From a virus: DNA of 64,000 nucleotides. The stretch covers positions 40,988 to 104,987 of IMG/VR virus record IMGVR_UViG_3300042731_007944, one strand, 5' to 3'. This document shows, one piece after another, positions 2,335 to 64,000 of this stretch (the stretch's first letter is position 1; the number at the start of each line of letters is the position of its first letter). Below the pieces are notes generated by a model. That model did not search any database and had not been told where the DNA came from. It worked only from the letters and a program-made list of their open reading frames with translations. A program made the position numbers and the translations under genes.

Positions 2335-2507
2335 TAGAGAAACGGGGCGTCGAGCGAGTGCAAACAGGCAACCCGGCTGACTCGACACGAGTCCCGTGGC
2401 TTTCCGTCCCATCCTCGCGGATGGTTTGGCATTTTTCTGTGTTCAGTAGGTACTCTATACGATAGTGCGTGGGGAGAAAAATGTCAAATCGGTCTAGCAA
2501 AAAAAAT

Positions 2508-2889
2508 GTCCACACCGATCCGAATCTGTGGACGGCGTGGACGCGACTAGCCAGCCGTGGACATCAGATCCCGGATGAATAAACCAGCATACATTTTCTG
2601 CTGGCGTTCTGTGGACAAGGGGCGTTCGGCTTCCAGGACTTTCCGGAAGGTGCTACGATCCATTCCGCACCATTCTGCGATCTGGGCATCGGCCAGTGTC
2701 GGGGTTGCTCGCTTCAAGGCTGCGATCTTGTGTCGCACCAGATCGAGTGTCACATCTTCTGGTCTTTGGATCTCAAAGGCAAACACCTTTCGTTCATCCG
2801 AGAGGCCATCAAACAGATCGTCTGCGTCCGTGTGGACGCCCGTGGACGCCGGTATCTGGGGCGTGGACGCTGCTTGTCCACGTGTGGAC
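2508..2889 (+). repeat. Cluster of GTGGAC repeats (8 direct, 2 inverted; consensus CGTGGACGC)
   Basis: GTGGAC at 2528, 2537, 2557, 2611, 2832, 2842, 2863, 2884; GTCCAC at 2508, 2876. Confidence 0.85.
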
Positions 2890-4863: not shown

Positions 4864-4921
4864 GATGTTCCTCCCTATGTTGATTGGTTTGTTCTACGTT
4901 CCAATTTTGCTTCCCGCTTTG

Positions 4922-5119
4922 TCAAGCGATTTTTCCGTTTCGCCCAGAGACCGGGCAAAGCGTTATTTGTGAAAATTTTCTCGTTTTCTGATGGCAGCTA
5001 AACAGATACCGGGCATAGGTGTCTTGCGAGACGATCCTATCTGCCGTCTTCTTGTATTGCCGGTACTGCTGTTGAATGGCGCGGTGGTGCGCCTGTTCCC
5101 AGGTCTCAAACGTTGTCAT
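4922..5119 (-). CDS. Hypothetical protein
   Basis: Short ORF in an overlapping gene chain. Confidence 0.5.
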   Translation of the reverse strand: MTTFETWEQAHHRAIQQQYRQYKKTADRIVSQDTYARYLFSCHQKTRKFSQITLCPVSGRNGKIA

Positions 5120-5303
5120 CTGTCACCTCGCGTTTCTGTTCTTTCGCCCATTCTTTCTGAAACGCTTGCCACATGCGTTGTTCAAGCTCTTTAAACTTCT
5201 CATAGCAGGCGTCACAAACGACGCCATAGTTTCCCGGTCTGTCTTCCAGTTCTTTCCCTTCGCCGTCTTTCAGGTCTTGCAAACAATGACCACAGGTGTT
5301 CAT
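5106..5303 (-). CDS. Small Zn-finger protein
   Basis: CGHC...CDAC; ATGA coupling. Confidence 0.6.
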   Translation of the reverse strand: MNTCGHCLQDLKDGEGKELEDRPGNYGVVCDACYEKFKELEQRMWQAFQKEWAKEQKREVTDDNV

Positions 5304-5497
5304 TCTGCACCACCTCCATAAATGCGTTCCGGCGTCTCTGGATAGTCCGGCCCGTTCTCGCGCCGGAATTCGTCGATCACTACACCATCTTTCTTCAGTA
5401 CCACCTTGACGCAGGTCGGTTCGCGTTTTGTCAGCGCGAAATACGTCAATGCCTTCATTTCAGAATCAAATTGCTGAATTTCCTCAATGGTGTACAT
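5300..5497 (-). CDS. Hypothetical protein
   Basis: Coupled to neighbouring ORFs. Confidence 0.55.
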   Translation of the reverse strand: MYTIEEIQQFDSEMKALTYFALTKREPTCVKVVLKKDGVVIDEFRRENGPDYPETPERIYGGGAE

Positions 5498-6718: not shown

Positions 6719-7426
6719 TTAATTTTGCTCGCTATTTTCCTGCTCGCTATCTTCCGGGCGTTCTGGCGATGGCAACAACAGCGCTTTCAATTCGTCAAGT
6801 AATGCCTTCCGGCGCTTACCCTGCAAGAATCCTTGGTGATGTTCGAGGTCCGCGATGAGGCGTGTCACGTCGCGCTGTTGGTGGACTGCTTCGATCTCTT
6901 GACGTATCGCTTCTCGTTGCCGAGCTTCATACTCCTTGCGAATATCGTCCGGGCTTTTCCCATCAGGCAACATCTTTATTTCGCCTTCCAGGGCCTCATT
7001 TCTCCTAATCAAATCGTAAATCTCTTTCTCTTTCTCCTGGAGATCCTTGAGGTGTTGGTCTTTTAATTGCGATATTTTTTCATGCAGATCGAAAAGCTGC
7101 TGGATATAGTGTGGAGTTTGAAGGTTGTTTGAAAGTGTTTGTGGTGGCGTGTCTTGCGCTGTTGGTGTTGGCGGCGGCTGCGGGAATTGATCCGGAAATG
7201 CCTGCTCTAGCCTGAGCCGAATTTCCGGCATGGATAAGCCCTGTTCTTTCATCTGTTTAATGCGGTCAAAAATTGGGAAGACCGCTTCGTCGAGCAGGAT
7301 CTTATTCTTATTGCCGTGTTTGGTGTGCTGTTTGAACAAGCCAGGGAACTGTTTGAGGCATTCCCGGAGAAACTGATATTTCAAGCCGGTTAAAGACTCC
7401 AGATCTTTTATGGAATACATGGGCAT
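6719..7426 (-). CDS. MerR-like HTH plus coiled-coil protein
   Basis: YSIKDLESLTGL N-terminus, Pro linker, long coiled coil; AAGGAGG RBS. Confidence 0.65.
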   Translation of the reverse strand: MPMYSIKDLESLTGLKYQFLRECLKQFPGLFKQHTKHGNKNKILLDEAVFPIFDRIKQMKEQGLSMPEIRLRLEQAFPDQFPQPPPTPTAQDTPPQTLSNNLQTPHYIQQLFDLHEKISQLKDQHLKDLQEKEKEIYDLIRRNEALEGEIKMLPDGKSPDDIRKEYEARQREAIRQEIEAVHQQRDVTRLIADLEHHQGFLQGKRRKALLDELKALLLPSPERPEDSEQENSEQN

Positions 7427-7731
7427 CCCCTCCTTATGAAACTGTCTAAAAACACGGTACGATTTTTCTGCCATCCCGTCAAGCGATTTTTCTTCAGGGA
7501 AATGAAATGCGATCTTTTTTCGCACGAAGGTTCATTTTTTCTGCTTGCTGTCTGTTTTACGTTCTAACTCGTTGAAAACTCTGCGTTAGGAGAAAAACTA
7601 GAGAAAAACTCTGTTTTTAGCGATTTTTTGATTGACAAAGGGTTTCCGTCTATGGTTTGGTGTTTCAGAATGATGCGTGTTTGATGCTATTCAATATCTT
7701 TTTAGCAACTATAGTTTTACAAGGAGATGTT

Positions 7732-9148: not shown

Positions 9149-9385
9149 ATGACACTGAACGAAAAAGAACTGAACGCCGTGCTAGCCTCAGCTTTGAAAG
9201 ATGCAAAAACGAATCAGATAACCTGGGGGCAAATTCGCACAAAGGTGTATCAACAAGTTGGACAACTCGCCCGGAAATACTATCAAATCGGGATAACGGA
9301 TTCTGAAGGCATGCACACGATAGCGCTGTTTTTCGCCCTGAACTATCAGGTAGACATGTACGAATTCATGCGCTACCTTGCATAA
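9149..9385 (+). CDS. Hypothetical protein
   Basis: Co-oriented ORF in the par operon. Confidence 0.55.
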   Translation: MTLNEKELNAVLASALKDAKTNQITWGQIRTKVYQQVGQLARKYYQIGITDSEGMHTIALFFALNYQVDMYEFMRYLA

Positions 9386-9516: not shown

Positions 9517-9792
9517 ATGACCGCTTTCGATCTCTACTGTGAATTGCGACAGCATGACATGAGGGCGCTCTATCATGGAAAGCCCTGTCAAGTGCTGACA
9601 ATGCAATACGAAACACCGAATGAGTTGGGCATCAGCCAAGAGATGCATGACGCTTTACCGGAAGGCCGTACCACGACACTCAGGGTGCGCTATTTCAACG
9701 AATTTTTGCAGGAAGATGACGAGGCGTTGCTGTTTCTGGATGAGTTTGTGAACTGCTCCCGGACATCAATGCCCGGGCATCTATGCCGCTGA
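9517..9792 (+). CDS. Hypothetical protein, 3' end altered by IS insertion at 9747/9748
   Basis: Removing the IS restores ...LDEFINPL*. Confidence 0.6.
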   Translation: MTAFDLYCELRQHDMRALYHGKPCQVLTMQYETPNELGISQEMHDALPEGRTTTLRVRYFNEFLQEDDEALLFLDEFVNCSRTSMPGHLCR

Positions 9793-10947
9793 CGCGGCAA
9801 GCGTCGCCAGCCCGCGACGCAATAAAACGAGAGAGGACACGTAGTCTCGATTTTCGACCAGCCCGCATTTCGGGCATTCATGCACTCGTTGCGACAGTGT
9901 TTTCCGTACTGGCTCCCCACAGACGCATACTTGTGAACTGCCTCTCGGGTTGGTCGGGATTCGACGTTTCCCTTGCTCTTTGACTTTATAGGCAACGATA
10001 TTCAGAAATAGGCCCCAGGCCGCGTCTGAAATAGAGAGGTGCAAGCCTGACGTATGACACGCACCGTTCGGCAGATACGTCCCAGTATCATCCTGTTTTG
10101 CCTTTGGACGCCTGAGCATATTTCGGATATTCAGGTTTTCGTGAATGAGATAATCCGTTTGTTTTAAGAGCGCGTTTGCTGTCTTGTGTAAAAAATCCAA
10201 CCGCTGACACTTGACGCGATAATGGGTTTTTTGGATGGCCTTCAAAAGTTTGTACCATTGCGGAGAGCGTTTCGGAGCCTTTGCAAATCGCCGTTGAAGA
10301 CGTTTCAGGCGTTGCTGTGATTTTCGGAAGGCTTTGGGATAGACGCAATGAAACCCGTTTGAGGCATAGACATAATCATTCAACCCTAAGTCAATCGCTA
10401 GAGGTGGCAAGGCGTCTTTAGGCTCTACTGATACTTCTAATTCAGTAGAGAAAGACGCAAACCACTTGCCTCCATCTTGTAAAATCGTCAGAGTTTTGAT
10501 TGTGGCCTCTTCCGGGATCGGGCGATGATACACACACTTCATGTTGCCAACTTTTGGTACATAGAATGAGTCAGAGGGACGTTGCGTATATTGCGGATAA
10601 GTAATTGACGACCACCTGCCACGTTTTTTAAACTTCGGGAACCCAGGCACGTCGCCCTGTTTAACTCGGCGGAAGAAGGCGTCAAAGGCGTTATCCAGAC
10701 GGCGTAAGACATCTTGAAGCACCTGAGAATGGACACCCTTAAACCACGGACGGGCTTTTTTAAGGAGAGGAAGTTGGCGTTTTTGTTCATACCAGGACAC
10801 AGACCGGCCTTCCTGCTCATAGACGTCCATACGTTCTTTGAGTGACCAGTTGTACACATAGCGGCACATCGAAAATTGATTCTTCAGGTTTGTCTGTTGC
10901 GCTTTTGTCGGATAAATCCTATATTTATACGCCTTACGAAGGATCAT
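9781..10947 (-). CDS. tnpB: TnpB RNA-guided endonuclease
   Basis: KAYKYRIYPT, RuvC AIDLG / HENL / NRD, Zn ribbon. Confidence 0.95.
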   Translation of the reverse strand: MILRKAYKYRIYPTKAQQTNLKNQFSMCRYVYNWSLKERMDVYEQEGRSVSWYEQKRQLPLLKKARPWFKGVHSQVLQDVLRRLDNAFDAFFRRVKQGDVPGFPKFKKRGRWSSITYPQYTQRPSDSFYVPKVGNMKCVYHRPIPEEATIKTLTILQDGGKWFASFSTELEVSVEPKDALPPLAIDLGLNDYVYASNGFHCVYPKAFRKSQQRLKRLQRRFAKAPKRSPQWYKLLKAIQKTHYRVKCQRLDFLHKTANALLKQTDYLIHENLNIRNMLRRPKAKQDDTGTYLPNGACHTSGLHLSISDAAWGLFLNIVAYKVKEQGKRRIPTNPRGSSQVCVCGEPVRKTLSQRVHECPKCGLVENRDYVSSLVLLRRGLATLAASAA

Positions 10948-11354
10948 TTGGTTTTTTGATCGGCAATATACCGCGTGACCGTCTCTTCTGAAACGTGTCC
11001 GATAGTTTCCACATACGTTGAGGGGTTCCACAGATGCCCATTCCAGAGACGTTTCTGTAACTCTGGAAATTCAAGCAAGAGGCGTCTCGCAGAAATGCCC
11101 TTCATTAATTTATACATATGCGAGGCAGAGTATTTTGGATGCCCAGACACAAACACATGTACATGATCCGGCATGACCTCCAGTGATTGGATGACAAATC
11201 CTTTTTCTTTTGCGATCTCATGTAACAGTGTCTTGAGTCTGGTATCAATGCCGTTGACCAATACCTTGCGACGATACTTGACCGTCCAAACAATGTGATA
11301 GTTCGCATTATACACGACCGTTCTGGCATAGGTAAACCGTTCCTTGTCTCGCAT
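10944..11354 (-). CDS. tnpA: IS200-type Y1 (HUH) transposase
   Basis: YHIVWTVKYRR, DHVH, LWNPS, YI..Q. Confidence 0.95.
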   Translation of the reverse strand: MRDKERFTYARTVVYNANYHIVWTVKYRRKVLVNGIDTRLKTLLHEIAKEKGFVIQSLEVMPDHVHVFVSGHPKYSASHMYKLMKGISARRLLLEFPELQKRLWNGHLWNPSTYVETIGHVSEETVTRYIADQKTK

Positions 11355-21939: not shown

Positions 21940-22107
21940 TGTGAAAAGAAAGGCAACTTATTTTTTTGTGCCATAGGGGAAGCGTAAAAAGGCTGACGAA
22001 ATTTGTCAAGTTTTTCTCGCAAAAATTATTATAAAAAATGGGTCTTTTTTGGTAAATATACCTTGACAAAAAACCTGTTCATCTGTCAGTATTATCTATG
22101 TTGAGAG

Positions 22108-22130
22108 TTTAAAGAATAATATTGTTAGCA
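22108..22130 (+). other. attI-like site heading the cassette array
   Basis: TTTAAAGAATAATATT-GTTAGCA; GTTAGCAGGC is the reverse complement of the first attC start GCCTGCTAAC. Confidence 0.55.
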
Positions 22131-22259: not shown

Positions 22260-22481
22260 ATGATGTCATTAGCAAAGATATTTTTTACCCAGTTAAGACT
22301 ATCGCTTTGTTTGCTTTTTTTGCAACTCGTTTTGAAAATTGTTCCAAAAGATGACGATGAAGGAAAACTCATTATAGCATCAATTGGTGCATTGGCAAAA
22401 ATGGAGTCGGCCTTGTTATCGTCACAACTGCCTGCTAACAAGGCCATGCAAAAGACACAGGCCGATGCCCGCAAAAATTAG
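22260..22481 (+). CDS. Cassette ORF, hypothetical (reads into attC)
   Basis: GAGG RBS; ORF. Confidence 0.5.
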   Translation: MMSLAKIFFTQLRLSLCLLFLQLVLKIVPKDDDEGKLIIASIGALAKMESALLSSQLPANKAMQKTQADARKN

Positions 22482-22555
22482 GAAATAACTATATACTGTA
22501 TCGCCCGCTATCAGGTTCACTCTTTGCCTGTGCTTCTGATGGCCGGCCGTTATGA
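22433..22555 (+). repeat. Integron attC site
   Basis: TGCTAAC...GTTATGA; GGCCAT(G)CAAAAG(A)CACAGGC pairs with GCCTGTGCTTCTGATGGCC, leaving extrahelical bases. Confidence 0.85.
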
Positions 22556-22566
22556 GGCTTCGTTAA

Positions 22567-22842
22567 ATGGCAATCCGATTAAGGAAAATAGAAAATACGT
22601 ATGTAGCGTTATGTGCTGTTGAATCAGACGCAAAAGTTGGCGATATTTATCTTGATGATAATATGCACCATGCGCTTTATACGAAATTCGCAATAGATTT
22701 TAATAGTGAGCGGAATTGCGGTATTGTGTTTGATGAAATTGTCGCAAAACTTATGGAGTCTCAAAAGGTTCGTGATGCACAAGAAGAAGCCGAGAGGTGG
22801 AGTGCAGAACGCCGTCATAACGCTCCAAATCAGCAGAGGTGA
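22567..22842 (+). CDS. Cassette ORF, hypothetical
   Basis: Starts just after attC; ends across an attC remnant (GTCATAAC 22814). Confidence 0.65.
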   Translation: MAIRLRKIENTYVALCAVESDAKVGDIYLDDNMHHALYTKFAIDFNSERNCGIVFDEIVAKLMESQKVRDAQEEAERWSAERRHNAPNQQR

Positions 22843-22845
22843 CGT

Positions 22846-23076
22846 ATGCGAGAAATAAATTTATTGAAGTGGATGCGAGATCATTGTTTGCGTTATGGCA
22901 GTATTGGAATTGCTGCAAAAAGATTCACTGTCTCGAATATTTGCTATGAATTGTTCATAGACCGCGATACCATTACGACGGAGATTGAAAAAATGGTTGA
23001 AAGTGGTTTGGTAATGTGGTTGTTTGATAAAGATACGCTTGAATTAACAAAAAAAGGCATCCATGCAACCTCATAA
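22846..23076 (+). CDS. Cassette ORF, small winged-helix-like protein
   Basis: GAGG RBS; stop in attC R''; LELTKKG motif. Confidence 0.6.
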   Translation: MREINLLKWMRDHCLRYGSIGIAAKRFTVSNICYELFIDRDTITTEIEKMVESGLVMWLFDKDTLELTKKGIHATS

Positions 23077-23200
23077 CAATAAAATGCACGTGAGTTTGCC
23101 CGCTGTCAGCAGTTTCCAGCGTTGCACTTCCGCTCACATGTTGTCGTAGTCCAAACGTGGTTGCCCGCTATGGCAAACCACGTGATTTTCAGCGTTATGA
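23071..23200 (+). repeat. Integron attC site
   Basis: TCATAAC-AATAA-AATGCACGTGAG...CCACGTGATT-TTCAGC-GTTATGA. Confidence 0.85.
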
Positions 23201-23253
23201 GGCTTGTATGACACGTCAATTTGAACTGTGGAATCAGGGAAGATGGATGGAAG

Positions 23254-23471
23254 AATTTCCGGCAGAGATCATTACGAATTCCCGCGCGCCGCAAGGCGGG
23301 GGCTTCCTGATGAGTGGGCCAGATGGAGTAGCCCCGGAATTGTCCCGCAGGCTCCCTGAGCTAAGAAAGGGCGAGAACCCTGAAAGTGAGAAGGGCTGAC
23401 ACTCGGAAAGGACGAGCTAACCTGTCGTCATAAATTGATAAGAAAGGCGACCCCGGACGAGAGTAACCGGG
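23254..23471 (+). ncRNA. Putative structured ncRNA in an apparently non-coding cassette
   Basis: Chain of GC-rich hairpins with purine-rich loops; no convincing ORF. Confidence 0.45.
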
Positions 23472-23565
23472 AAATCTTGAACATATTCCGTGGGGAGTGC
23501 TCCGAGGAGAGAGCCCCGGCTGTGCAGCATCCAAAAAAAGAATGGCAGCCAAAACAGGAGCGCCA

Positions 23566-23666
23566 TCATAACAAGCAATTTCACCAGACAACGCCCGCCG
23601 TCAGGTGTTTTGCAGATTAGAAACCACGTCGCAAGCGGGCATTGCAGGTGATTTGCGGCGTTCTAA
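23566..23666 (+). repeat. Integron attC site
   Basis: TCATAAC-AAGCA-ATTTCACC...GGTGATT-TGCGGC-GTTCTAA. Confidence 0.8.
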
Positions 23667-23686
23667 TGCCTTCAGCGGAGGATGTC

Positions 23687-24013
23687 ATGTTTGAAAAAAT
23701 AGAACTTACTAAAGACAATCTTTTGGAATTTCTATCAAATAATGTGTGCGCGAAAGACTCTGAATTCAATCTTGAACTATGCGAATCAAAAGGCCGTGGC
23801 CGCAGTGGGCGTACAGTTTTTTATATTCATGGCGAATTGATAAGCCATTTGTGGAAAACATGTCAAATTAATCGAGCCCCTCGGTTTTCCGTATTCTCCG
23901 ATCAAGATGTCATTGAAAGGGCGAATAACTGGATAAAACGAAAAAGAAAGTTGTTGGTTGGGGCATTAGAACAAACGCTTGCAAAAGACCCCAAAGACGC
24001 GGGCGAAAATTAA
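23687..24013 (+). CDS. Cassette ORF, hypothetical (reads into attC)
   Basis: GGAGG RBS. Confidence 0.65.
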   Translation: MFEKIELTKDNLLEFLSNNVCAKDSEFNLELCESKGRGRSGRTVFYIHGELISHLWKTCQINRAPRFSVFSDQDVIERANNWIKRKRKLLVGALEQTLAKDPKDAGEN

Positions 24014-24073
24014 TCTTGTTAACGTCAGCTTCGGTGGCCGCGTCTTTGGGGCTGTTGAAGCGAGGCGTTACAT
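23966..24073 (+). repeat. Integron attC site
   Basis: TTAGAAC...GTTACAT; CCCCAAAGACGCGG/CCGCGTCTTTGGGG stem. Confidence 0.85.
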
Positions 24074-24136
24074 GCCCTCCCCGTAGGCGTAACCGCTCAT
24101 TGAAAACTTAAAAATCTTCCTGAAATCAAAAAAACA

Positions 24137-24186
24137 TTCAATTTGAATAAATAATACTTGACAATATTCATATTGAATATTATATT
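24137..24186 (+). promoter_or_regulatory. Cassette-internal sigma70 promoter with two palindromes
   Basis: TTGACA-17-TATATT; TTCAATTTGAA and TTCATATTGAA. Confidence 0.6.
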
Positions 24187-24238
24187 ACATGTGACGCTGA
24201 AAAAGGGAACATAAACACAAATTCAGGAGGATTCAATC

Positions 24239-24535
24239 ATGACAGCTTATGAAAAAAACCAGGCAATGTTAAACAAGCCAAAACAACAGTTATACCCCCT
24301 TGAAAAAGTTTTGAGAAAAGAAGGGTGGGAATACATGTATTGCGACAATACAAGCGAGGTATGGGATGTAAAAGCCCTGCTTGAAAGCGAATGTCCGGCA
24401 TTGCAAGAATTGTGTCGCCCTGAGATGGGAGAAGGTGAGGTCGTCTTTCATTTTCATCAATATTGTTTGCGCAAGGGTTCGCTTGGGGTTGCTGCCTCAG
24501 TGAACACTTTTCGTACTATCAAAACGACCATCTAA
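24239..24535 (+). CDS. Hypothetical protein (possible toxin of a two-gene pair)
   Basis: AGGAGG RBS; precedes XRE gene. Confidence 0.55.
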   Translation: MTAYEKNQAMLNKPKQQLYPLEKVLRKEGWEYMYCDNTSEVWDVKALLESECPALQELCRPEMGEGEVVFHFHQYCLRKGSLGVAASVNTFRTIKTTI

Positions 24536-24547
24536 GGGAGATTCGCA

Positions 24548-24958
24548 ATGTATCCACGTATCGCGACAGCAGCGCAGATTATGGCGGCCTTAATGGCCGC
24601 CCTCGGCTGGAAACAAGCCGACGTAGAGCAAGAATTAGGCTTCAACCAGAGCGAAATCAGCAAGCTTCTTACTGGTGATATTGGCTTCACCAAAAAAACA
24701 GAGAAGCTTGTGGATTTATATTTAGAGCATAAGCTTTCTGACGATCAGAAGCGTGAATTTGGATGGGAAATCTTTTTGCAGCTTCATCGCGAAGAAGTTG
24801 TCGATTTGGCGAAAAAAGCCGGATGGTTTCCGCGCTCTGGCAGCAGTTTAGAACTTGATGCGTTTTTACTGCCAGATGGTTTTGAGGCTCCGGCAGTTGA
24901 AGCGTATTCAGAATTATGTAATGTGTTAGACGCTACAAAAATGGAGTATGGCATGTAA
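24548..24958 (+). CDS. XRE-family HTH protein
   Basis: LGWKQADVEQELGFNQSEISKLL; stop in attC. Confidence 0.75.
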   Translation: MYPRIATAAQIMAALMAALGWKQADVEQELGFNQSEISKLLTGDIGFTKKTEKLVDLYLEHKLSDDQKREFGWEIFLQLHREEVVDLAKKAGWFPRSGSSLELDAFLLPDGFEAPAVEAYSELCNVLDATKMEYGM

Positions 24959-25055
24959 CAAAGCGTTTCACGGGACTTTGCCCGCCCGCGACGTTTGATT
25001 CAGTTTTGAAACTTGGTTCCGGGGCGGGCAAACCCCGTGAACGCAGGCGTTATAA
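24953..25055 (+). repeat. Integron attC site
   Basis: ATGTAAC-AAAGC-GTTTCACGGG...CCCGTGAAC-GCAGGC-GTTATAA. Confidence 0.9.
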
Positions 25056-25080
25056 ACCTTAGCGCCAACGGAGTACAAAC

Positions 25081-25801
25081 TTGAAAATAGGCCCATACGA
25101 AACAAATCAGATTTACACCGGAGACGCGAGAGCCTTGTCAAAGGAAATCCCTGATGAGTCTATCGACTTAATTTTGACCGATATATCAGAATATAGAAGA
25201 CTATCTGTGGCTTTCAAATTTGGCTCAGAGAGTGTTGAAACCGAATTGCGCCTGTCTTATGTGGCAGGGCCAGCAGTGGCTTTCTGACACAATCTGCGCG
25301 TTGAAAGCGGGGCCTTTGGCGTATCGTTGGGTTTTGGGGTGGTATGCGTCCAACAATATGCAGATGGTCGGCAAGATAGGGCGCAAGATTGCGCCCTGTT
25401 TATGGTACGAGAAAGGCCACAGCAACCCGTTCAAAGCCGTCCGTGAAGTGGTTGACGTGCCGATCCCAGGCAAGAAGCCGCCGTTCAAATGGGCGAAGAA
25501 TCCGAAAGCTCTTGCGTATTATCTCAGCAAGTTTGCAAATGAGGACAGTGTCGTTTTTGACCCGTTTTCAGGCATGGGCAGTTTACCGGCAGTCTGCAAA
25601 AGTTTTGGGATAAATTTTCTTGCCTTTGAACTGGAAGCGGATCGCGCAGAATCAGCGCGTGAACGTTTAGCCCAAACTCCGGTGCCATTGCCTTTTAAAG
25701 TCCTGCAATCAGAGCAAACAAGCTTTGACTGTGGGGTTTATAACAATGGCATGGAGCCGGATTTGAAACCCGCCGCGTCAAGTTTTGCGGCGAACAATTA
25801 A
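25081..25801 (+). pseudogene. N4/N6 DNA methyltransferase (beta class), frameshifted at the catalytic motif
   Basis: IYTGDA...IDLILTD, frameshift, then RVLKP...VFDPFSGMGS. Confidence 0.8.
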
Positions 25802-25847
25802 CAACGGTGGGCGGCGGGCTTCAAACCGCTCATGCCTGCCGTTATAA
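25738..25847 (+). repeat. Integron attC site
   Basis: TTATAAC-AATGG-CATGGAGC...GCTCATG-CCTGCC-GTTATAA. Confidence 0.9.
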
Positions 25848-26143
25848 CGCATATCATACTCAACGTGGGCAGTACAACAAAAAGCTGTAAAAACGTCTTG
25901 CGCTTTCCAGATTGATGCGTTACGATGATTGGAAGAGAGGTATGGTGGCCCACACAGCACGGTTGCGCCGAGGTTTGTTCACGCTACTCCTCGTCAAATA
26001 TGGTGTGGCGTTTTGTGATGGTTGGTTGCCTTTGGTCATGGCGCAACCGTCCAGTGTGGAGTCAGGGGAGTTGCTCGTATCAAAAATACGCATCGCGCCA
26101 CGCTTCGCGTCGCGCTTATTTGGATTTTCGCCCCAGAAATATT

Positions 26144-26335
26144 ATGCAGTACACAGTAAATTTTTTAGAAAACGATGGAGAATACATAGGGATCTTGACA
26201 GTGAATTGTGATCATGGTGTTAAGGTCGATGAAAGTGATCCCCGTATATTTTATGCCGACAACGTAAGTATTGCCATTGATGAGGAAATTGTTTCTGTTA
26301 AAGATGATAATGGTAATGTAGTATTCAAAGGGTAA
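26144..26335 (+). CDS. Hypothetical protein
   Basis: Small acidic ORF directly upstream of 26343. Confidence 0.55.
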   Translation: MQYTVNFLENDGEYIGILTVNCDHGVKVDESDPRIFYADNVSIAIDEEIVSVKDDNGNVVFKG

Positions 26336-26342
26336 ATATAAT

Positions 26343-27002
26343 ATGCCTGTTCCAGATCACGTCATCTTTGGCCCAAATTCCCAAGGCGAGGGAATCACAT
26401 ATGGGCAAGTTCGCGCCCTTGAAGAAAACGATCGTTACTCAGCGCTGAAGCAGAGACTCGATACTTTTCTGATTTCACAAATACACGAACTCGCCAAAGA
26501 GGAGGACGGGCAAAGAAAAGTCTACAGCCCATTTCCATTATTCTTGCTGACATGCATAGCCATAGAGGCTCTCGGGAAGGCATTGTACCGACCCTCCCAG
26601 CCTATGTCTGATAAGGACGCTCAACGTGAAGGCTTCTTTACGGTGTGTGGCAAGATCGATAAACATTTCTCCCGACCGTTGCGTAAGAAGGATAAAAAGA
26701 GACTTGATATGCTTTGGGGAGAAAATATGCAGAAAAAGCCTGAAACGTTGGCAGATGTGATATATCGTTTTGGTCGGCATACTATGGCGCACGGGTTTCG
26801 AGGAAAAGGAGTCTATCTTACCGAAGATAAGAAGATCGAATGGGAATTTATTGACTGTGCGTTATATTTAAATCCTTACTGGTTCTGGCGGACATTCACG
26901 GCTGTATACGAACAGGGATGGGCTGCGTTGTTTGAGAATAAAGAGCCAACGAATACACTAAAACGTTCGGCTGATCAGTATTTGGCAGAAATATTGGAAT
27001 AA
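26343..27002 (+). CDS. Putative HEPN-like protein
   Basis: IAIEALG helix and RHTMAH (Rx4H). Confidence 0.5.
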   Translation: MPVPDHVIFGPNSQGEGITYGQVRALEENDRYSALKQRLDTFLISQIHELAKEEDGQRKVYSPFPLFLLTCIAIEALGKALYRPSQPMSDKDAQREGFFTVCGKIDKHFSRPLRKKDKKRLDMLWGENMQKKPETLADVIYRFGRHTMAHGFRGKGVYLTEDKKIEWEFIDCALYLNPYWFWRTFTAVYEQGWAALFENKEPTNTLKRSADQYLAEILE

Positions 27003-27024
27003 ACCAACAAAAAGGGAAGTAATA

Positions 27025-27054
27025 TTTAAAGGCGTTATAATAATATTGTTATAA
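27025..27054 (+). other. Second attI-like site in place of an attC
   Basis: TTTAAAG-GCGTTAT-AATAATATT-GTTATAA; no attC hairpin. Confidence 0.5.
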
Positions 27055-27078
27055 CCACCTTAGAAGGAGCAGCCAACT

Positions 27079-27402
27079 ATGGGCATGAAAAAACATACAT
27101 ACGTAATGACTGGGATAAAATTGACACCTAAAATGCTTGAGACTCAAATGATTGATATTTTCAGTGACAAACTGCTTCCACTTGTTGAAGGTCATAAAGA
27201 TGTTTCGTTGTCCATTGTTTATGGTGAAGGAAGTAGCGTCTATGCTGGAAAGATTGTTGCTAAAAGTGAACCATATAGCGATGATGTATCACAAGAGCTA
27301 CAATTCCCGTCTCGTCAGGAAGTGGCAAATGAGTTGAGGAAATATGGGTTTAAAATTGAATCCTATTCCGTTAATAACTGGTTTTTCGATATTTGGCGAT
27401 GA
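27079..27402 (+). CDS. Cassette ORF, hypothetical
   Basis: AAGGAG RBS; ends at attC. Confidence 0.7.
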   Translation: MGMKKHTYVMTGIKLTPKMLETQMIDIFSDKLLPLVEGHKDVSLSIVYGEGSSVYAGKIVAKSEPYSDDVSQELQFPSRQEVANELRKYGFKIESYSVNNWFFDIWR

Positions 27403-27506
27403 TTATAACAATGCGTTTCAAGCGACTCCTGCCCGCCACGACGCTTTGGATAAGCTTTGAACTTTAGTTTCAGGCGGGCAGGAGCGCCTGAACGCAAACG
27501 TTAGGG
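27403..27506 (+). repeat. Integron attC site
   Basis: TTATAAC-AATGC-GTTTCAAGCG(A)CTCCTGCCCGCC / GGCGGGCAGGAGCGCCTGAAC-GCAAAC-GTTAGGG. Confidence 0.9.
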
Positions 27507-27632
27507 CGCATATCGCTTGTAGCATAGTTGGTTGGTACGAGCAGTGAAAAATAACTTGCGCCCGTAACCAATCCATGCCATATTAATTCGATTTGAGATA
27601 ATGGAGATAATATACAACAAAAGGAGAATGAT

Positions 27633-58464: not shown

Positions 58465-59249
58465 TTGTTCACCAGGTCAATCTGTTGTATCATCTTGAAT
58501 AACGGGATAACCACATGAGGAACGACCGCATTGCCGGTCATTCTTGCCACGCTGCTTTGAGAACACCCATCAAGCCATCCTTTAGGCATGCCGGCAAATC
58601 GCTGTCGCTCTTCAGAGTCCAAGATTCGCAATCTTCCGTCGTAAATGTAACAATCACGGGAATCGTATCGTTGTCGGTTCGTAGTAAGACACGGAATGAC
58701 CTGCCTCGACGCACAGCCCGGCGTATAATAACTTGAATTGCCTTGAAGTTCACATAACTCCCGGAGTGTGCTTTGCCAGGCTTCTTGATTTGATGCGACA
58801 ATAAAATCTCGGATTCGTTGTTGACCTGTAAACGGAGCGGCGTCTGTCCGGACAATAACCGATCCGTATCCGAGCAACTCCAATGCGGTCGCAAAGTCAA
58901 CATCATCTGATGAAGGAACATTTTCGCGGAGTACCCACCGTGGCCGGCACTCTCCAACCACTCTGAGGAAATGTCCTGATAAGTCTGGGGTATTGCTTTG
59001 ACCATTGCTTCGCGCTCGGCTTCTGATAGGACAGGGATCGCCACCTGAAACAAGCGTAATTGATTCATACTCATCACCGTGTAACTTTCGGATATCAGAC
59101 ACACAGGGAACATCGGGCCATCGTTTTTGAAGCACCCGCCGGCATTGTGCGTTTTTCTCACAGAACACGACCGGCTCATAATCGGGAAAAACCTGAGACG
59201 CCGCATACACAAACATGCCAGACCCTGTGAATAAATCGATCTGTCTCAT
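58461..59249 (-). CDS. C5 cytosine DNA methyltransferase
   Basis: IDLFTGSG, GGDPC, ENV, QQRIR, GNAV. Confidence 0.9.
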   Translation of the reverse strand: MRQIDLFTGSGMFVYAASQVFPDYEPVVFCEKNAQCRRVLQKRWPDVPCVSDIRKLHGDEYESITLVSGGDPCPIRSRARSNGQSNTPDLSGHFLRVVGECRPRWVLRENVPSSDDVDFATALELLGYGSVIVRTDAAPFTGQQRIRDFIVASNQEAWQSTLRELCELQGNSSYYTPGCASRQVIPCLTTNRQRYDSRDCYIYDGRLRILDSEERQRFAGMPKGWLDGCSQSSVARMTGNAVVPHVVIPLFKMIQQIDLVNK

Positions 59250-59471
59250 ACAAATTACCACACCATAGAGTGTGGGAACTGTCAAGCAAAAAAAAGAGGA
59301 AAAAACACCAGAGGGTGTATCACAGGATCTTTGCTGACTTTTCTAAGATAAACCCGGAAATGTCGTGTGAAGAATTCATGCTTGAGAAATATTTCCCTAA
59401 GTGACTGTCACACTACGGATTTAGATGGTTTTTTGCACAACACACAAGTGATCGATAAGGGCAGTTATGTG

Positions 59472-59903
59472 TTAATATTCATAGGCCTCTTTTGTGTACT
59501 TCCCATACTGTCTAAAATCATCTTCCCTTTTTTGATAGGCAAGTTCTTTGCAGATATTACAACGATCTCCTTTGTTCTTCGGGTTTAACAAGGCTCTTCT
59601 TGACCTTGTTTCATATCGGCCACAAGCACATTTCACGACCCATAATGTTTTCTTGCGATAGTTTTTAGCGCCATCAAAAACGCCAATCACTAGGAATCTA
59701 CCAAAGCGCTTTCCGGTTAGATCGTGGTAACTCCATCCCCTAAAAGGGACAACAGGTGGTTGAACCTCCCAATGGCGCTCAGTTATTTTTTTCTTCGATG
59801 TAAAATGAACGCCTTTAGCATACAAAACAGTTGCAGACGTTTTATCTACGGCTTTACGTGGAGAATCAAAATAATCTCTTGGCATTTTAAAAACAACCTT
59901 CAA
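59472..59903 (-). CDS. Cassette ORF resembling phage HNH/AP2-associated N-terminal domains
   Basis: DLTGKRFGRFLVI...WVVKCACG; followed by an R'' remnant ACACATAAC. Confidence 0.6.
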   Translation of the reverse strand: MKVVFKMPRDYFDSPRKAVDKTSATVLYAKGVHFTSKKKITERHWEVQPPVVPFRGWSYHDLTGKRFGRFLVIGVFDGAKNYRKKTLWVVKCACGRYETRSRRALLNPKNKGDRCNICKELAYQKREDDFRQYGKYTKEAYEY

Positions 59904-59915
59904 CTTACTGATGAC

Positions 59916-60055
59916 ACATAACGCCGAACATCACAAGCCATGTCCGCGCCCCTCACGACGGGTACCGAAGCATGCGAAACCACCAAACCTTTAAGCGAGA
60001 GGAGTATGTTGAAAACTACCGCGCGGACATGGTCTTGTGCATGTTTTTGTTAGCG
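59916..60055 (-). repeat. Integron attC site
   Basis: Minus strand CGCTAAC-AAAAA-CATGCACAAG(A)CCATGTCCGCGC...GCGCGGACATGGCTTGTGATG-TTCGGC-GTTATGT. Confidence 0.9.
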
Positions 60056-60066
60056 CTTACGTCCCT

Positions 60067-60261
60067 TTAGTGTATTTTCTTGATAGCTTTTTCGCTTCTT
60101 AACTCTAAACGATAAAGACTTTCCCTTTTTTCAAGAATTTGATCAACTGTTCTCGCAATGATTTCTTTCAATTGCGTTCCATCAATAAATAGAACACCAT
60201 TGTCATTATCATCAAATTCTGCATTTATTCTTATCGGAGCTTTAATCATAAAAGAATTCAC
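60067..60261 (-). CDS. Hypothetical protein
   Basis: Short ORF before attC. Confidence 0.5.
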   Translation of the reverse strand: MNSFMIKAPIRINAEFDDNDNGVLFIDGTQLKEIIARTVDQILEKRESLYRLELRSEKAIKKIH

Positions 60262-60280
60262 CTCTTACAAAATCATCTAT

Positions 60281-61075
60281 TTATGGCTCTATTGCATCAA
60301 TATCGTCAATACGATAGAAAAGTAAACGTCTCTCCCGTACTTTCTCAGTTGAAATTTCTTTAACTTGCTGTAATTCTGAGTCTGTCAAAACATTTTTCTG
60401 CGATAGTATGTTCAATAGGTTGTCCATTATCTCAATATTATCTTCAAGCATTTCCATAATATTGGGAATTTCAGGATATAATCCAACCCTCTTTTTATGG
60501 GTGATGTCATAGCTTCTTTCGACCAAACAGATATGCTGTTTTATTTTGCCATCATTCTGAGACCACAGCCCCTGTCCGAAACGCATTTCTTTCTCTTGCT
60601 CGCTGATGCCTACTCTGACAACTGGAAAATATAACTCACCATATCTTATTTTCTTAAAATTCTCATATTCTTCAGGTGTCAGAAGTATTCTGGCATCAAT
60701 AATCAAGGAGTCTTCATCTATGGATTCTTTGTAGAAATATGGCTGAAAAGACAAACCGTTGATTACTAATTTTTCGATTGAAAGGACTTCCTGCTCAGTA
60801 AGTTCCAATGTATGCCTATAAGGCCCACTATCGTTAGAGTAAGTATATGAGCTATTACTAATTTTCCACTTCTTCCTATGGTCTTCTTCATCAACGGAAC
60901 TTATAATCTTATTATCTCTAATAATGTCTAAAAAAGCCCGATGTCCGTTTTCATTTCTGAATGTTAGGGAAACCTCTATGACATTCAGTTCTGTCCCAGT
61001 ATGTTTTGATAGAATTGTTTCCCGCAACTCTGTTTGCACCGGAACTTTGTCATTAAAAAGTTCTAAATACAGCAT
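60281..61075 (-). CDS. Hypothetical protein
   Basis: AAGGAG RBS; AT-rich ORF. Confidence 0.75.
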   Translation of the reverse strand: MLYLELFNDKVPVQTELRETILSKHTGTELNVIEVSLTFRNENGHRAFLDIIRDNKIISSVDEEDHRKKWKISNSSYTYSNDSGPYRHTLELTEQEVLSIEKLVINGLSFQPYFYKESIDEDSLIIDARILLTPEEYENFKKIRYGELYFPVVRVGISEQEKEMRFGQGLWSQNDGKIKQHICLVERSYDITHKKRVGLYPEIPNIMEMLEDNIEIMDNLLNILSQKNVLTDSELQQVKEISTEKVRERRLLFYRIDDIDAIEP

Positions 61076-61121
61076 TGTTTAGCTCCTTTCCTGTTCAAGG
61101 ACTCCTGTTACATAAAAAAAA

Positions 61122-61171
61122 GAGGGCAGGCGGGAACAGGATACCCGCTTTTCGGGAGCGACCCTATCCTC
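61122..61171 (-). ncRNA. Structured leader RNA, GAGGATAGGG family (copy 2)
   Basis: GAGGATAGGGTCGCTCCCGAAAAGCGGG...CCCGCCTGCCCTC downstream of a TTGACA promoter. Confidence 0.55.
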
Positions 61172-61248
61172 TCTTTTGTGAATGATGCTCAAAGTATCAT
61201 ATCGTTTTCGCTTATGTCAATACATTTCTTCGCTGTTTACAAATAGAG

Positions 61249-61387
61249 CGCTAACGCCTGCGTTCACAAGCAAAACTCGCGCCCTATGCGGGAGACAGAC
61301 GTTGATGCTAAGATTAAGTTTTATGCGTTGCACGTATGTTCAAACTACAGCGCGCGGGTTTTGTCTTTGTGCAACGCTTTGTTAGGG
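61249..61387 (-). repeat. Integron attC site
   Basis: Minus strand CCCTAAC-AAAGC-GTTGCACA...TGTGAAC-GCAGGC-GTTAGCG. Confidence 0.9.
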
Positions 61388-61458
61388 CGATTTTAGACAA
61401 CATTGACATAGCTTCATGGAAGAAACTACGCCAATGTTGTTTCTATATGACAAAAATA

Positions 61459-61839
61459 CTATATTGACACTTCCTCAAATAGGCGATCAAAAATAGCATC
61501 TTTACACGCCTGGAAATCGAAATTGCCACCACCAACACACACAGAAAAATGTTCTTCATCACCATTCTTCCCATATCCATAGGACAAATTCTGAACAATC
61601 CTGTCTTCTTCGATTTCCAGGTTTTTGAATTTTACAGCAAGATCAAAATCACACCGGATCGCAGCATCTTCATAAAAGACTTCACCAAAATCAGCGTGAA
61701 GCATTTCAGGTTTGCAGCCTAAATATTCTGCGAAACCGCGAAGAACAACTTCCGCAAATCTCCTCTGTGACTTTTTAATGTTGTTCTTTGTGGCTGCTAT
61801 TTGCTGACAAACTTCTGTATATCTTGTCATATCATTCAT
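61459..61839 (-). CDS. Hypothetical protein
   Basis: ORF with its own promoter and leader. Confidence 0.65.
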   Translation of the reverse strand: MNDMTRYTEVCQQIAATKNNIKKSQRRFAEVVLRGFAEYLGCKPEMLHADFGEVFYEDAAIRCDFDLAVKFKNLEIEEDRIVQNLSYGYGKNGDEEHFSVCVGGGNFDFQACKDAIFDRLFEEVSI

Positions 61840-61877
61840 CGCCCCAATCCCGTGTTTTATCAGGGTAATAAACTAAA

Positions 61878-61946
61878 AGCCCGAAAATCGCTACCGCCAA
61901 ATAGAGAGAAAAGGCGTCTGCCACGATGGGCAGAAATCTTCGGGCT
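61878..61946 (-). ncRNA. Three-way-junction leader RNA
   Basis: AGCCCGAAGA/TTTTCGGGCT closing stem with two hairpins; upstream TTGACA-17-TATTAT. Confidence 0.45.
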
Positions 61947-62188
61947 AATTTTATTTTACAATGCTACCTCTCTCTATTTTAGTAGCAGATAAGATAATAT
62001 CCCTCTATAAAGAGCATGTCAAGAAAAATCAATGCCCTCAGTGTAACGCACGGCGCGAAGTGCGGTGCAACTCCTCCTGTTAATATTAGCAACTCACTTG
62101 ACCCCGTTGCTGCCGCGACAAGTATAATGCTTGTACTGCCCTCCCAAACATCACAGAGCGGGAGCAACGCGGGACGACTCCCCCTATT

Positions 62189-62842
62189 TTATATTACTGA
62201 CCTATCCCCTGATGTTAGATATTGCTGTCGTCTTTTCTCCCTTTCCTGTAATGCTGCTATAAATGCTGGACGTTGTTGGATGATCCTTACAAGCTCTTCT
62301 TCGGCGAGTTCTCCGGCTAACTCTAAAAGCTCCTCGGTGACAAATGGTTTCGCTTCCGCAGTAATTTCAAATGTATGTACAGGCCCCAAGGGAGTTTGTT
62401 CACCGACCTGCGAAATTTGCATAAGAATACGTTTCTTCAGTAAGCCAACCACCGCAGGATCGAGAAGGGGAAGTAATACAGCATGTTGTTTTTGGAAGAA
62501 AGTAAATTCTCGCAAGACACTCTTCTCTTTTGTATCCAACGTATTAAGCGCATTTTTCACTCCAACAATATGACGTCTTGATGCAAAACGTTTTTTGAAA
62601 GATAATCCAACCGCCCAACCTACATCTACAACAATATATGAAACCGTAATAAGAAATACTCCGCCAAAATAGTTCTTATAGGTAGCAATAATCTGCTGTA
62701 AACCAAAAACAGAAAGCCAGCTTTGAGGGAAAAGCAAGCATATTCCAGAAACAATACACAAAAAGAGTACCATTTTTATAAAAACCTTACTTTTAAGTAA
62801 CTCAGCCGCCTTTATGGCAATATCAAACACTTTTTCTATCAC
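62189..62842 (-). CDS. Superinfection exclusion B (SieB)-like membrane protein
   Basis: Two TM segments, LLFPQSWL, LDTKEKSVLREF, LPLLDPAVVGL. Confidence 0.75.
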   Translation of the reverse strand: MIEKVFDIAIKAAELLKSKVFIKMVLFLCIVSGICLLFPQSWLSVFGLQQIIATYKNYFGGVFLITVSYIVVDVGWAVGLSFKKRFASRRHIVGVKNALNTLDTKEKSVLREFTFFQKQHAVLLPLLDPAVVGLLKKRILMQISQVGEQTPLGPVHTFEITAEAKPFVTEELLELAGELAEEELVRIIQQRPAFIAALQEREKRRQQYLTSGDRSVI

Positions 62843-62885
62843 ATATCCTCCCCGTTACAGGATTATCACCCGTTGATTTATGGAT

Positions 62886-62934
62886 GAGGAAGACCGGCAA
62901 CGGAAACCGGCCTTTCGGGAGCTACCCTATCCTC
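62886..62934 (-). ncRNA. Structured leader RNA, GAGGATAGGG family (copy 3)
   Basis: GAGGATAGGGTAGCTCCCGAAAGGCCGG...CCGGTCTTCCTC after TTGACA-18-TAAAAT. Confidence 0.55.
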
Positions 62935-62988
62935 GGCATAATTTTATATTCCGTTCTTTTAGAATGTCAAGCAATTCTCTGTATGGGA

Positions 62989-63255
62989 TTATTCAAACTG
63001 CCTGTGACAACTCGGACACTCTTGAACTGTTTTATCTTCTAATCGTGTCCCACAATTGCCACACACAAAGTATTGCGAGGCTTGTGACCCGTATACGAAC
63101 AAGATAACCGCAAAAACAGTACCGAGCAGACCGAATATTGGACCTCCAAGCCACCCCCCTAAACACAACAAACCAAGCAATTGCAAAAAACACCCTTTTC
63201 CGGCGGTACTGGTTTTCTTTTTCTTCTGTGCAGTAGCGATATTCCCTGTTTCCAT
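62989..63255 (-). CDS. Membrane protein with C-terminal Zn ribbon
   Basis: Two TM segments; CGNC...CPSC. Confidence 0.7.
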   Translation of the reverse strand: METGNIATAQKKKKTSTAGKGCFLQLLGLLCLGGWLGGPIFGLLGTVFAVILFVYGSQASQYFVCGNCGTRLEDKTVQECPSCHRQFE

Positions 63256-63307
63256 AATCCCTCCTGATTATTCCTGTGCTGTGTTTTATGTTGACTTTCG
63301 ATCACGA

Positions 63308-63523
63308 CTATCGTATCTTTCGATACCGATATTGTCCCTTCTTAATGTGGTCATCTAAATATCCACCTTTTGAAGAGGCATTCATCAAGCTCATATACAC
63401 ATGTTGCGGTACACGAAAATATTGATACACCGCGCCATCATGGAATTCAACTTCTAAGGTATGTGTTTCAGGATCGTACCCCACAGATTTGAGATTGGTA
63501 GATGAAACGAATGTCCTGTGCAT
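63308..63523 (-). CDS. KTSC-domain protein
   Basis: VSSTNLKSVGYD...LEVEF..G.VYQY..VP...ASSKG. Confidence 0.9.
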   Translation of the reverse strand: MHRTFVSSTNLKSVGYDPETHTLEVEFHDGAVYQYFRVPQHVYMSLMNASSKGGYLDDHIKKGQYRYRKIR

Positions 63524-63727
63524 AGTACCTCCTTTACAATATGGAAGAGCACCTTGATATAACTCCACCACCGATAGAAACCATGACTGAACAAGAAATT
63601 TTTGCCTTGTTCGACAAATACCACTTTAAGGATGATCATGGGCATAACTTGCTCTACTGTGAGGACTTTATCCTCTTGGTAAAACAAGTTGCCTATCATC
63701 GCACAATAAACACCCCATAAACACAAA

Positions 63728-63800
63728 AAGCTCCGAAGAGTTGCTATTGCCACGGAATGTGGTTTCCCGGTCGTCGCCGATCCGGAACTCTTCGGAGCTT
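63728..63800 (-). ncRNA. Three-way-junction leader RNA
   Basis: 15-bp closing stem AAGCTCCGAAGAGTT/AACTCTTCGGAGCTT with two internal hairpins. Confidence 0.45.
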
Positions 63801-63936
63801 ATCAATATTTCATTCCACATTCTGACAATAGCGTCACAAATGTGGTACAGCTATAACTTCACGTCAAGGAAAATTCTGAGAGATCTTCATATTTTTCACA
63901 TACTATAGTGTGAGGTGATGTTGATGTGATGATGCG

Positions 63937-64000
63937 CGCTAACGCCTGCGTTCACAAGCAAAACTCGCGCCCTATGCGGGAGACAGACGTTGATGCTAAG
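63937..64000 (-). repeat. Integron attC site (partial, runs off window)
   Basis: 63936-64000 is identical to 61248-61312. Confidence 0.85.

Follow-up and report, generated by a model that had tools for sequence, protein, structure and literature searches.

Terminal repeats of a wetland viral contig as distal attC sites of a probable phage-borne integron

What kind of repeat separates the genes at the end of a large viral metagenome contig, and does the gene array that these repeats delimit belong to a phage or to the chromosome of its host? This question is raised by positions 59464-64000 of a 64,000-nucleotide (nt) stretch of DNA (hereafter the window), which represents bases 40988-104987 of a single 104,987-bp contig from the IMG/VR virus record IMGVR_UViG_3300042731_007944. 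Coordinates given below are those of the window, except for those marked as contig coordinates, which refer to the whole record. Our analyses indicate that this region probably consists of cassettes 8, 9, and 10, the cassettes farthest from the integrase, of a classical integron that is carried by a temperate phage or phage-like wetland-metagenome element of about 105 kb. The identification of the repeats themselves as integron attC sites is nearly certain, and the evidence for it is presented before the question of ownership is taken up.

The attC sites of integrons generally consist of R''/R' (..AAC / GTT..) and L''/L' boxes within an imperfect hairpin of 57-141 nt, and they are characterized by extrahelical bases, an unpaired spacer, a variable loop, and a preference for the bottom strand (PMC5371416). 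Three sites of this type are found on the minus strand of the region, each at the position which the original prediction had assigned to it, exact to the base. They are the 140 nt attC of cassette 9 at 59916-60055 (126.2 bits and an E-value of 7e-34 with a covariance model), the 139 nt attC of cassette 8 at 61249-61387 (145.9 bits, E 2e-39), and the R'-side half of the attC of cassette 7 at 63937-64000 (53.4 bits, E 3e-13), which is cut by the end of the contig. The two complete sites both start with ...TAAC and end with GTTA..., and the 65 nt identity that had been pointed out between the last two copies is 100% (63936-64000 vs. 61248-61312), while the region of the attC at 61249-61387 is also 97% identical across 156 nt to an attC at contig 4038-4193. 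When the plus strand is folded as single-stranded DNA, the sites at 59916-60055 and 61249-61387 reach -28.5 kcal/mol (z -3.8) and -31.1 kcal/mol (z -3.0), respectively.

The covariance model was built from seven attC copies of the contig aligned with MAFFT, and its search of the contig identified 17 attC sites (E 2e-39 to 2e-9) of about 100-141 nt in which AAC and GTT are invariant. The search gave only two further matches at E-values of 10 or less, both of them weak and both echoes, on the opposite strand, of two of the near-palindromic attC sites. In the alignment of the 17 sites, 94% of the cells are paired vs. 71% in shuffles, both partners vary in 20 of the 32 stem pairs, and the covariation score reaches 0.434 vs. 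0.105 in shuffles (0 of 500 reach 0.434) and at most 0.084 in a slid-register control where the partner was shifted by 1-3 columns; this alignment was fitted to the model, and the independent figure is that obtained with RNAalifold from the seven-copy MAFFT alignment, in which 15 of 32 pairs are compensatory. The structure of these sites is conserved while their sequence is not.

The boundaries of the cassettes follow a common rule. The start of a cassette is complementary to its own R'' in runs of 9-11 nt in 9 of the 10 cassettes of the array, the sole exception to such runs being cassette 8 (between 61381 and 63943), where the complementarity is 8/11, and the matching of cassette ends noted in the original prediction is thus a property kept by all ten. 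In cassette 9, GTTAGCGCT (60049-60057) stands opposite AGCGCTAAC (61247-61255), and in cassette 10, GTTATGTGT (59464-59472) stands opposite ACACATAAC (59914-59922) as an exact complement of 9 nt. In each attC, moreover, the 3' arm of the plus strand contains two bulged bases that are conserved (viz. C in TG[C]A and T in G[T]C), and a 3x3 unpaired spacer (GCC/TTT) adjoins the AAC/GTT box. The nearer bulge is separated from GTT by 8 nt, which we take, from attCaadA7, to be the canonical spacing of an extrahelical base. Because the bulges are located on its 3' arm, the plus strand would be the recombining bottom strand and the cassettes would be read on the minus strand, a polarity that agrees with the cassette open reading frames (ORFs), most of which are minus-strand, and with the divergent orientation of intI on the plus strand. 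The coding (top) strand is accordingly minus here, opposite to that of another array at 22.4-27.5 kb, as had been proposed.

The array does not appear to end with the contig. The last 70 nt (63931-64000) are 100% identical to contig 4033-4102, the first 74 nt of the contig are 98.6% identical (one mismatch) to contig 4106-4179, and positions 1-71 of the model match the contig end (53.4 bits) while positions 75-153 match contig 1-79 (50.6 bits). Since these repeat identities and model positions fit together, the end and the start of the contig are, as judged from their sequences, the two halves of one attC from which 3 nt are absent, and the closure of the contig through this single site is rather likely. 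From the contig start onward, same-strand attC sites are located at about contig 4039, 6392, 7669, 8357, 8798, and 9211. The array comprises ten same-strand model matches from contig 9347 to window 59909 across the contig ends, which correspond to nine attC sites, since the model matches the copy at the contig junction twice, once per half. In all likelihood, the region 59464-64000 consists of cassettes 8-10 and forms the distal end of a single intI-linked array of ten cassettes. The earlier view of two separate arrays is correct in that an opposite array is present at 22-27 kb, but the array at the window end is probably not an independent one, being the far third of the array linked to intI.

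The head of the array and an integron integrase gene, which had been suspected to lie beyond the window, are both found at the start of the same contig, and a reading of the adjacent DNA for further attC, attI, and intI yields the six additional attC sites listed above, an attI crossover at contig 9771-9774, and an intI gene at contig 9876-10883. The intI ORF is intact, is located on the plus strand, and represents the only match of the contig to TIGR02249 (329.9 bits; cut-off 265). The full length of its product can be aligned with Vibrio IntI4 (2A3V, E 9e-70), including both the insert peculiar to integron integrases (ALSRKYP...WEWFWVFP) and the catalytic residues R, K, HxxR, H, and Y. Its nearest relatives among 5.8 billion proteins share at most 50% identity with it, and those that have names carry an integron-integrase annotation and stem mainly from metagenome-assembled genomes (MAGs) of Chloroflexota. 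A second contig encodes this IntI as well. Cassette 1, whose gene (T5orf172/MUG113) directly follows the attC at contig 9211-9340, is separated from intI by about 100 nt of AT-rich DNA. Its boundary at the attI crossover (G|TT) reads GTTGCATAAC then AATATT (contig 9765-9780), where GTTGCATAAC is complementary to GTTATGCAAC at contig 9334. The attI together with the first seven codons of intI has an inverted second copy 53 kb away (window 21954-22130 vs. contig 9767-9944, 97% identity), and the two copies are identical exactly from TAAC and have different cassettes on the other side, so that they would look like two active insertion points.

The genes that surround the two arrays are those of a phage. 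The opposite array, which contains seven attC sites of the same family (22426-27513, E 2e-31 to 3e-9), is flanked by tail-completion and adaptor genes (33-37 kb) and by tape measure and tail fibre genes (12.8-21.8 kb); it is certainly situated inside the phage tail/neck module and is probably a secondary array headed by the duplicated attI. On its lower-coordinate side, the array at the window end is adjoined by genes for a C5-methyltransferase, an XRE regulator, and a tyrosine integrase, and farther left by TerL, portal, protease, and major head protein genes, the phage region also containing tape measure, tail fibre, neck, and adaptor genes. Past intI are found genes for a DnaB helicase, a PD-(D/E)XK exonuclease, a Dam methylase, and PAPS-reductase-like proteins. 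If the contig closes, the integron would be enclosed by phage genes on both sides, and the gene content makes it very likely that the element is phage-borne. A 235 nt stretch that is 81% identical and inverted between contig 7403-7637 and window 25879-26115 represents paralogous cargo in both arrays.

Parts of the region are present in six wetland or sediment sequencing runs. In the probable source run, an unbroken 35-kb Logan contig (k=31, depth 15.7) extends from about window 25.9 kb to 61277 and spans the junction between phage and array and one attC. In the same run the depth of cassette 8 is about 11, that of cassette 7 (a 4,022 nt contig) is 12.9, and the depth of the shared attC node, 37.5, equals the sum for three copies whose flanks have depths of 15.7, 12.9, and about 11; four copies, which are expected if the contig ends represent different sites, would fit worse. 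A second wetland run contains both the phage flank 59049-59452 and cassettes, and in it an 856 nt contig leads from cassette 9 (60818-61403) through one attC, which carries the letters of the contig-4039 copy, to contig 4194-4448 (cassette 6). This contig hints at the exact product that would be expected if attC x attC recombination had removed cassettes 7 and 8, which together span 6.7 kb with SieB, a BstA-like protein, and a methylase, and it would link the arrays at the window end and at the contig start. About a quarter of the genomes in the source run may also be without these two cassettes, which would fit the depths of 15.7 vs. 11-13. An apparent joint from 61389 to 63931 was rejected as a repeat artefact, the 4,022 nt contig being cassette 7 with both ends matching the repeated attC.

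Several points weigh against the placement of these cassettes in a working, closed phage integron. The bulged base nearest to the R box is a C, vs. the conserved G of studied attC sites, and the second bulge is a T; the last cassette has no attC, so that the junction of array and phage is not an IntI crossover; the depth differences may be due to GC bias; the 856 nt contig has a depth of only about 4 and could represent a path switch within the 99 nt shared attC half; and promoter-like sites in the region number 14 vs. 12 +/- 3.7 in shuffles, which is no enrichment. The closure itself is weakened by the classification of the record as linear in IMG/VR, by the 3 nt that are absent at the presumed contig junction, by a CheckV completeness of 89% that allows for unassembled DNA such as further cassettes, and by the fact that no read or contig was found across the junction; exact-pattern scans of viral and metagenome contigs, a set that may not include the window's own record, yielded no contig with the unique DNA beside the contig end or the border of cassette 9 and its attC. 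The linear classification, the completeness value, and the 3 nt gap also favor an alternative in which the element is the same but is not closed through a single attC, with further cassettes or a second attI/intI unassembled between the contig end and start, and near-identical attC copies are indeed where assemblers collapse or break arrays. However, the attC node depth fits three copies and not four or more, and contig ends that lie 3 nt apart in one repeat unit are unexpected for unrelated breaks, and we regard this alternative as unlikely.

A more distant alternative, raised in the original prediction, is that the prophage ends near 59.4 kb and that the array is a flanking chromosomal integron of the host. 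The array end adjoins phage integrase, XRE, and methyltransferase genes, a frequent site of prophage borders, the GC content of the cassettes (35-45%) is unlike that of most of the phage backbone (about 50-56%), and bacterial MAG chromosomes commonly contain attC sites of this family. Nevertheless, a host integron is improbable because phage genes are found on both sides, with phage-type replication genes (DnaB, exonuclease, and Dam) beyond intI, and because the sister array lies in the tail/neck module, between neck and tape-measure genes, behind a 97% identical copy of attI; the record is moreover a virus record, and no bacterial housekeeping gene was seen in the approximately 70 ORFs scanned. 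It is more improbable still that phage and integron were joined by a metagenome assembly chimera at attC repeats common to members of the community. Loose ends in the same wetland runs do carry related attC sites and int-alpA cores (an RNA motif described below) in other contexts, but the junction at 59464 is not in a repeat and is crossed at uniform depth by the independent 35-kb contig, the depths of cassettes 7 and 8 are near that of the phage, and the second sample holds the phage flank plus cassettes. That the repeats are REP-like (repetitive extragenic palindromic) or other palindromic elements without any link to an integron is barely credible and is refuted as far as sequences go: imperfect palindromes of 115-141 nt are not confined to integrons, but here the repeat family is adjoined by an IntI that exceeds its family cut-off, TAAC is the crossover point in both attI copies, the complementarity of start and R'' holds in every unit, the bulges are conserved on one arm, and one repeat unit stands between genes or gene groups.

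Under the preferred reading of a phage-borne integron, the array would run off the contig end inside one attC and resume at the contig start with cassettes 7 to 1, attI, and the divergent intI. As in other members of the integron family, IntI would recombine the folded attC strand with attI to insert a circular cassette, and recombination between two attC sites would excise it; this activity is predicted from the sequences of IntI and the attC sites. SieB, the BstA-like protein, a fused methylase/specificity enzyme, and a Panacea antitoxin pair would represent the type of cargo that protects a lysogen from other phages, a putative defence role that follows from the family names. A bolder proposal, which we put forward only tentatively and consider somewhat doubtful, is that a functional integron serves the phage as a swap-shop for self-contained "moron" units (promoter, int-alpA-type leader, and exclusion/defence gene), with one IntI serving two attI heads, and that cassettes are being gained and lost in nature at present, cassettes 7 and 8 being, as it seems, cleanly absent at the attC crossover in the second wetland sample and maybe in about a quarter of the source genomes.

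Phage integrons are already known, and the element described here is a large and divergent further case. A screen of 10,705 phage genomes identified three complete integrons, one In0, and 17 clusters of attC sites lacking an integrase (CALINs) (Qi et al., 2023; PMC9892861). Among these, M16-3 resembles our element in being a tailed-phage genome with intI, an attI-headed array, and a second attI-headed array that lacks its own intI and is flanked by phage tail, capsid, and terminase genes (PMC9892861). However, M16-3, a cryptic prophage, has a length of 40 kb, and its IntI shares 95% identity with a host-type Shewanella IntI, whereas the element here is about 105 kb in length, has an IntI only 36% identical to that of M16-3, and carries 17 attC sites and attI copies that are inverted and 53 kb apart. 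An integron integrase is likewise phage-encoded in the Vibrio anguillarum phages Va_90-11-286_p16 and PF430-3_p42 and in an E. coli P1 isolate (PMC9892861), but these integrons are pieces of host sedentary chromosomal integrons picked up at excision or a clinical class 1 integron on a phage-plasmid, in contrast to which the IntI here is at most 44% identical to theirs, the cargo consists of phage-type genes, and the sister array is embedded in the morphogenesis module. In our search, IntI-like proteins were found in 9 of 50,697 phage records, all of them at most 44% identical to the IntI here.

Sedentary chromosomal integrons with anti-phage cassettes (bioRxiv 10.1101/2024.07.02.601686) share with this array long and mutually similar attC sites, cassettes of unknown or defence function, a toxin-antitoxin-type cassette (here the Panacea antitoxin), and some promoters of their own, but they are chromosomal and contain tens to hundreds of cassettes, whereas the arrays here contain 10 and 7 and are on a phage. 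A search of IMG/VR with TerL yielded no close relative, and one with IntI yielded a single relative of 35% identity. The attC pattern, in turn, recurs in 65 stretches of bacterial MAGs or genomes (viz. Desulfobacterota, KSB3/Moduliflexota, Spirochaetota, Chloroflexota, and others) and in five IMG/VR records, one of which is a complete 70-kb phage with terminal repeats. As this attC type is also found in chromosomal arrays of MAGs labelled as many phyla, a common cassette pool is plausible. The best matches are spread over several phyla. Two of the IMG/VR records (IMGVR_UViG_3300031566_000354 and IMGVR_UViG_3300035130_000101) carry 3-4 attC sites of this family; in one of them, a complete genome of 70 kb, no IntI exceeds the cut-off, and the other has a recombinase fragment at its contig end.

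Integrons are viewed as gene-capture devices of bacteria, and of the few phage records that carry one, most hold pieces of host or clinical integrons. The present record sets itself apart as a 105-kb phage from the environment that encodes a divergent IntI of its own and carries two attI heads, 17 attC sites, and phage-versus-phage cargo. If the proposed reading is true, phages can run an integron in the service of their accessory genome and carry cassettes from one host to another.

The genes of the three cassettes in the window, all on the minus strand unless stated, are in part of recognizable families. The original calls of multi-gene cassettes and of SieB, KTSC, and zinc-ribbon genes among them were sound, as cassettes 8 and 9 each hold several genes and the families are recovered as given here. 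Cassette 8 (63942 to 61255, 2,688 nt) contains five genes and an attC. The KTSC-domain gene (63308-63571; PF13619, 90.2 bits; phrog_3292, 70.6 bits) likely starts at an ATG near 63520, and a small divergent gene is located on the plus strand at 63541-63720 (phrog_18255, 42.6 bits, E 7e-11). These are accompanied by an 88 amino acid (aa) small membrane protein with a C-terminal zinc ribbon (62989-63255; Zn_ribbon_15, E 1e-4), for which about ten further zinc-ribbon models match, all below their cut-offs, a weak but consistent signal, and by a 217 aa superinfection-exclusion protein of the SieB family (62189-62842; PF14163, 97.3 bits, E 8e-28). The 126 aa protein encoded at 61459-61839 has no family match in searches of Pfam and PHROG; it may possibly have an NTF2-like fold, for which structure rows of the ESM Atlas provide a lead only (SnoaL/DUF4440-like, template modelling (TM) scores of 0.5-0.6).

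Cassette 9 (61254 to 59922, 1,333 nt) consists of a first gene of 264 aa (60281-61075), a second gene of 64 aa (60067-60261) taken from the ORF list, and an attC. Neither protein gave anything above noise in Pfam, PHROG, or PADLOC, and for the 264 aa protein the ESM Atlas provides, again as a lead only, unnamed bacterial clusters (feature score 0.92, TM 0.71-0.74). Cassette 10 (59921 to 59464) has one gene (59472-59903), whose 143 aa product is of phage type (phrog_18493, 77 bits, E 3e-21) and contains a weak HNH-endonuclease-like stretch (phrog_374, E 3e-7), a Pfam search giving no family match. PADLOC found nothing for the cassettes of the window, and the 4.7-kb region has no DNA match among the 50,697 phage records. 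In the cassettes beyond the contig junction, cassette 7 encodes an AntA/BstA-like protein (contig 158-931; PADLOC BstA, E 5e-17) and a 790 aa fused N6-methylase/specificity protein with an HsdR-N piece (contig 1473-3845), and in cassette 6 a SocA/Panacea antitoxin gene stands beside a 153 aa gene without assigned function (contig 4204-5222).

The array ends with the R'' core of cassette 10 at 59464-59472 (ACACATAAC on the minus strand), the 9 nt complement of 59914-59922. With its filters turned off, the covariance model reaches at most 4 bits at 58900-59950 outside of the known site, and the fold of 59335-59476 is no better than shuffles (z -0.2 and -0.6). Cassette 10 is without an attC beyond this 9 nt core and is fixed beside the phage methyltransferase-XRE-integrase genes; it is because its attC was lost save for the R'' core that the cassette is fixed and its junction with the phage DNA is not an IntI crossover. 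A 36 nt mini-palindrome at 59436-59471 was rejected as a terminal attC because of its insufficient length and its wrong register. A comparable case is qacEdelta1, which belongs to the 3' conserved segment of class 1 integrons and is likewise a terminal cassette without an attC and hence fixed at the array end. The gene and flanks of cassette 10 are unrelated to those of qacEdelta1, and only the 9 nt R'' core is left here.

The distal cassettes are more than 10 kb from attI and for this reason would not rely on its promoter. They would instead be self-contained units that consist of a sigma-70-like promoter, a structured int-alpA-type leader ending in a U-run, and a gene, and this design offers a testable answer to the problem of expression far from attI. 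Three minus-strand sites with a perfect TTGACA -35 box are located 20-50 nt upstream of structured leaders, viz. TTGACA-16-GATACT at 61220-61193 (10/12 consensus match) before the leader of the 264 aa gene, TTGACA-17-TATTAT at 62022-61994 (11/12) before that of the 126 aa gene, and TTGACA-18-TAAAAT at 62970-62941 (11/12) before that of sieB, and the use of these sites as promoters is predicted from their match to the consensus. The earlier claim that several cassettes have their own promoter is thus borne out as regards three strong sites preceding cassette ORFs, but the total count, as given above, does not exceed that in shuffles.

The leader of the 264 aa gene (61104-61174, minus strand) matches the int-alpA RNA motif (RF02996) with 44 bits vs. 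a gathering threshold of 35.8, and a second leader of this type before sieB (62870-62937, minus strand; 35.5 bits, gathering 35.8, E 1e-4) is 79% identical to it, the genes located 3' of these leaders being neither int nor alpA. Two further structures resemble the int-alpA architecture of an outer stem, two inner hairpins, and a U-run. One is a Y-shaped leader at 61866-61945 on the minus strand with an RNA fold of -30.4 kcal/mol (z -3.6), which no shuffle equals, and the other is a long branched hairpin at 63724-63803 that has T-runs on both strands and a minus-strand RNA fold of -38.7 kcal/mol (z -5.0). These four Y-shaped leaders may be conditional terminators that are read by a phage factor. 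The array had also been described as feeding into the early-gene region, but a terminator-like hairpin with a T-run (59318-59305, minus strand) intervenes between the last cassette and the methyltransferase gene, and a transcriptional feed into early genes is therefore unsupported. A 77 nt stretch that is 86% identical is found both at window 62103-62179 (3' of sieB) and at contig 5293-5368 (3' of a cassette 6 gene), and it has a TTGACC...TATAAT-like site on the plus strand, possibly an antisense promoter or small RNA. Lastly, the phage core of the window contains a c-di-GMP-I-GGC riboswitch (60 bits) at 2363-2439 on the minus strand and an IS605-type TnpB gene at 9781-11031.

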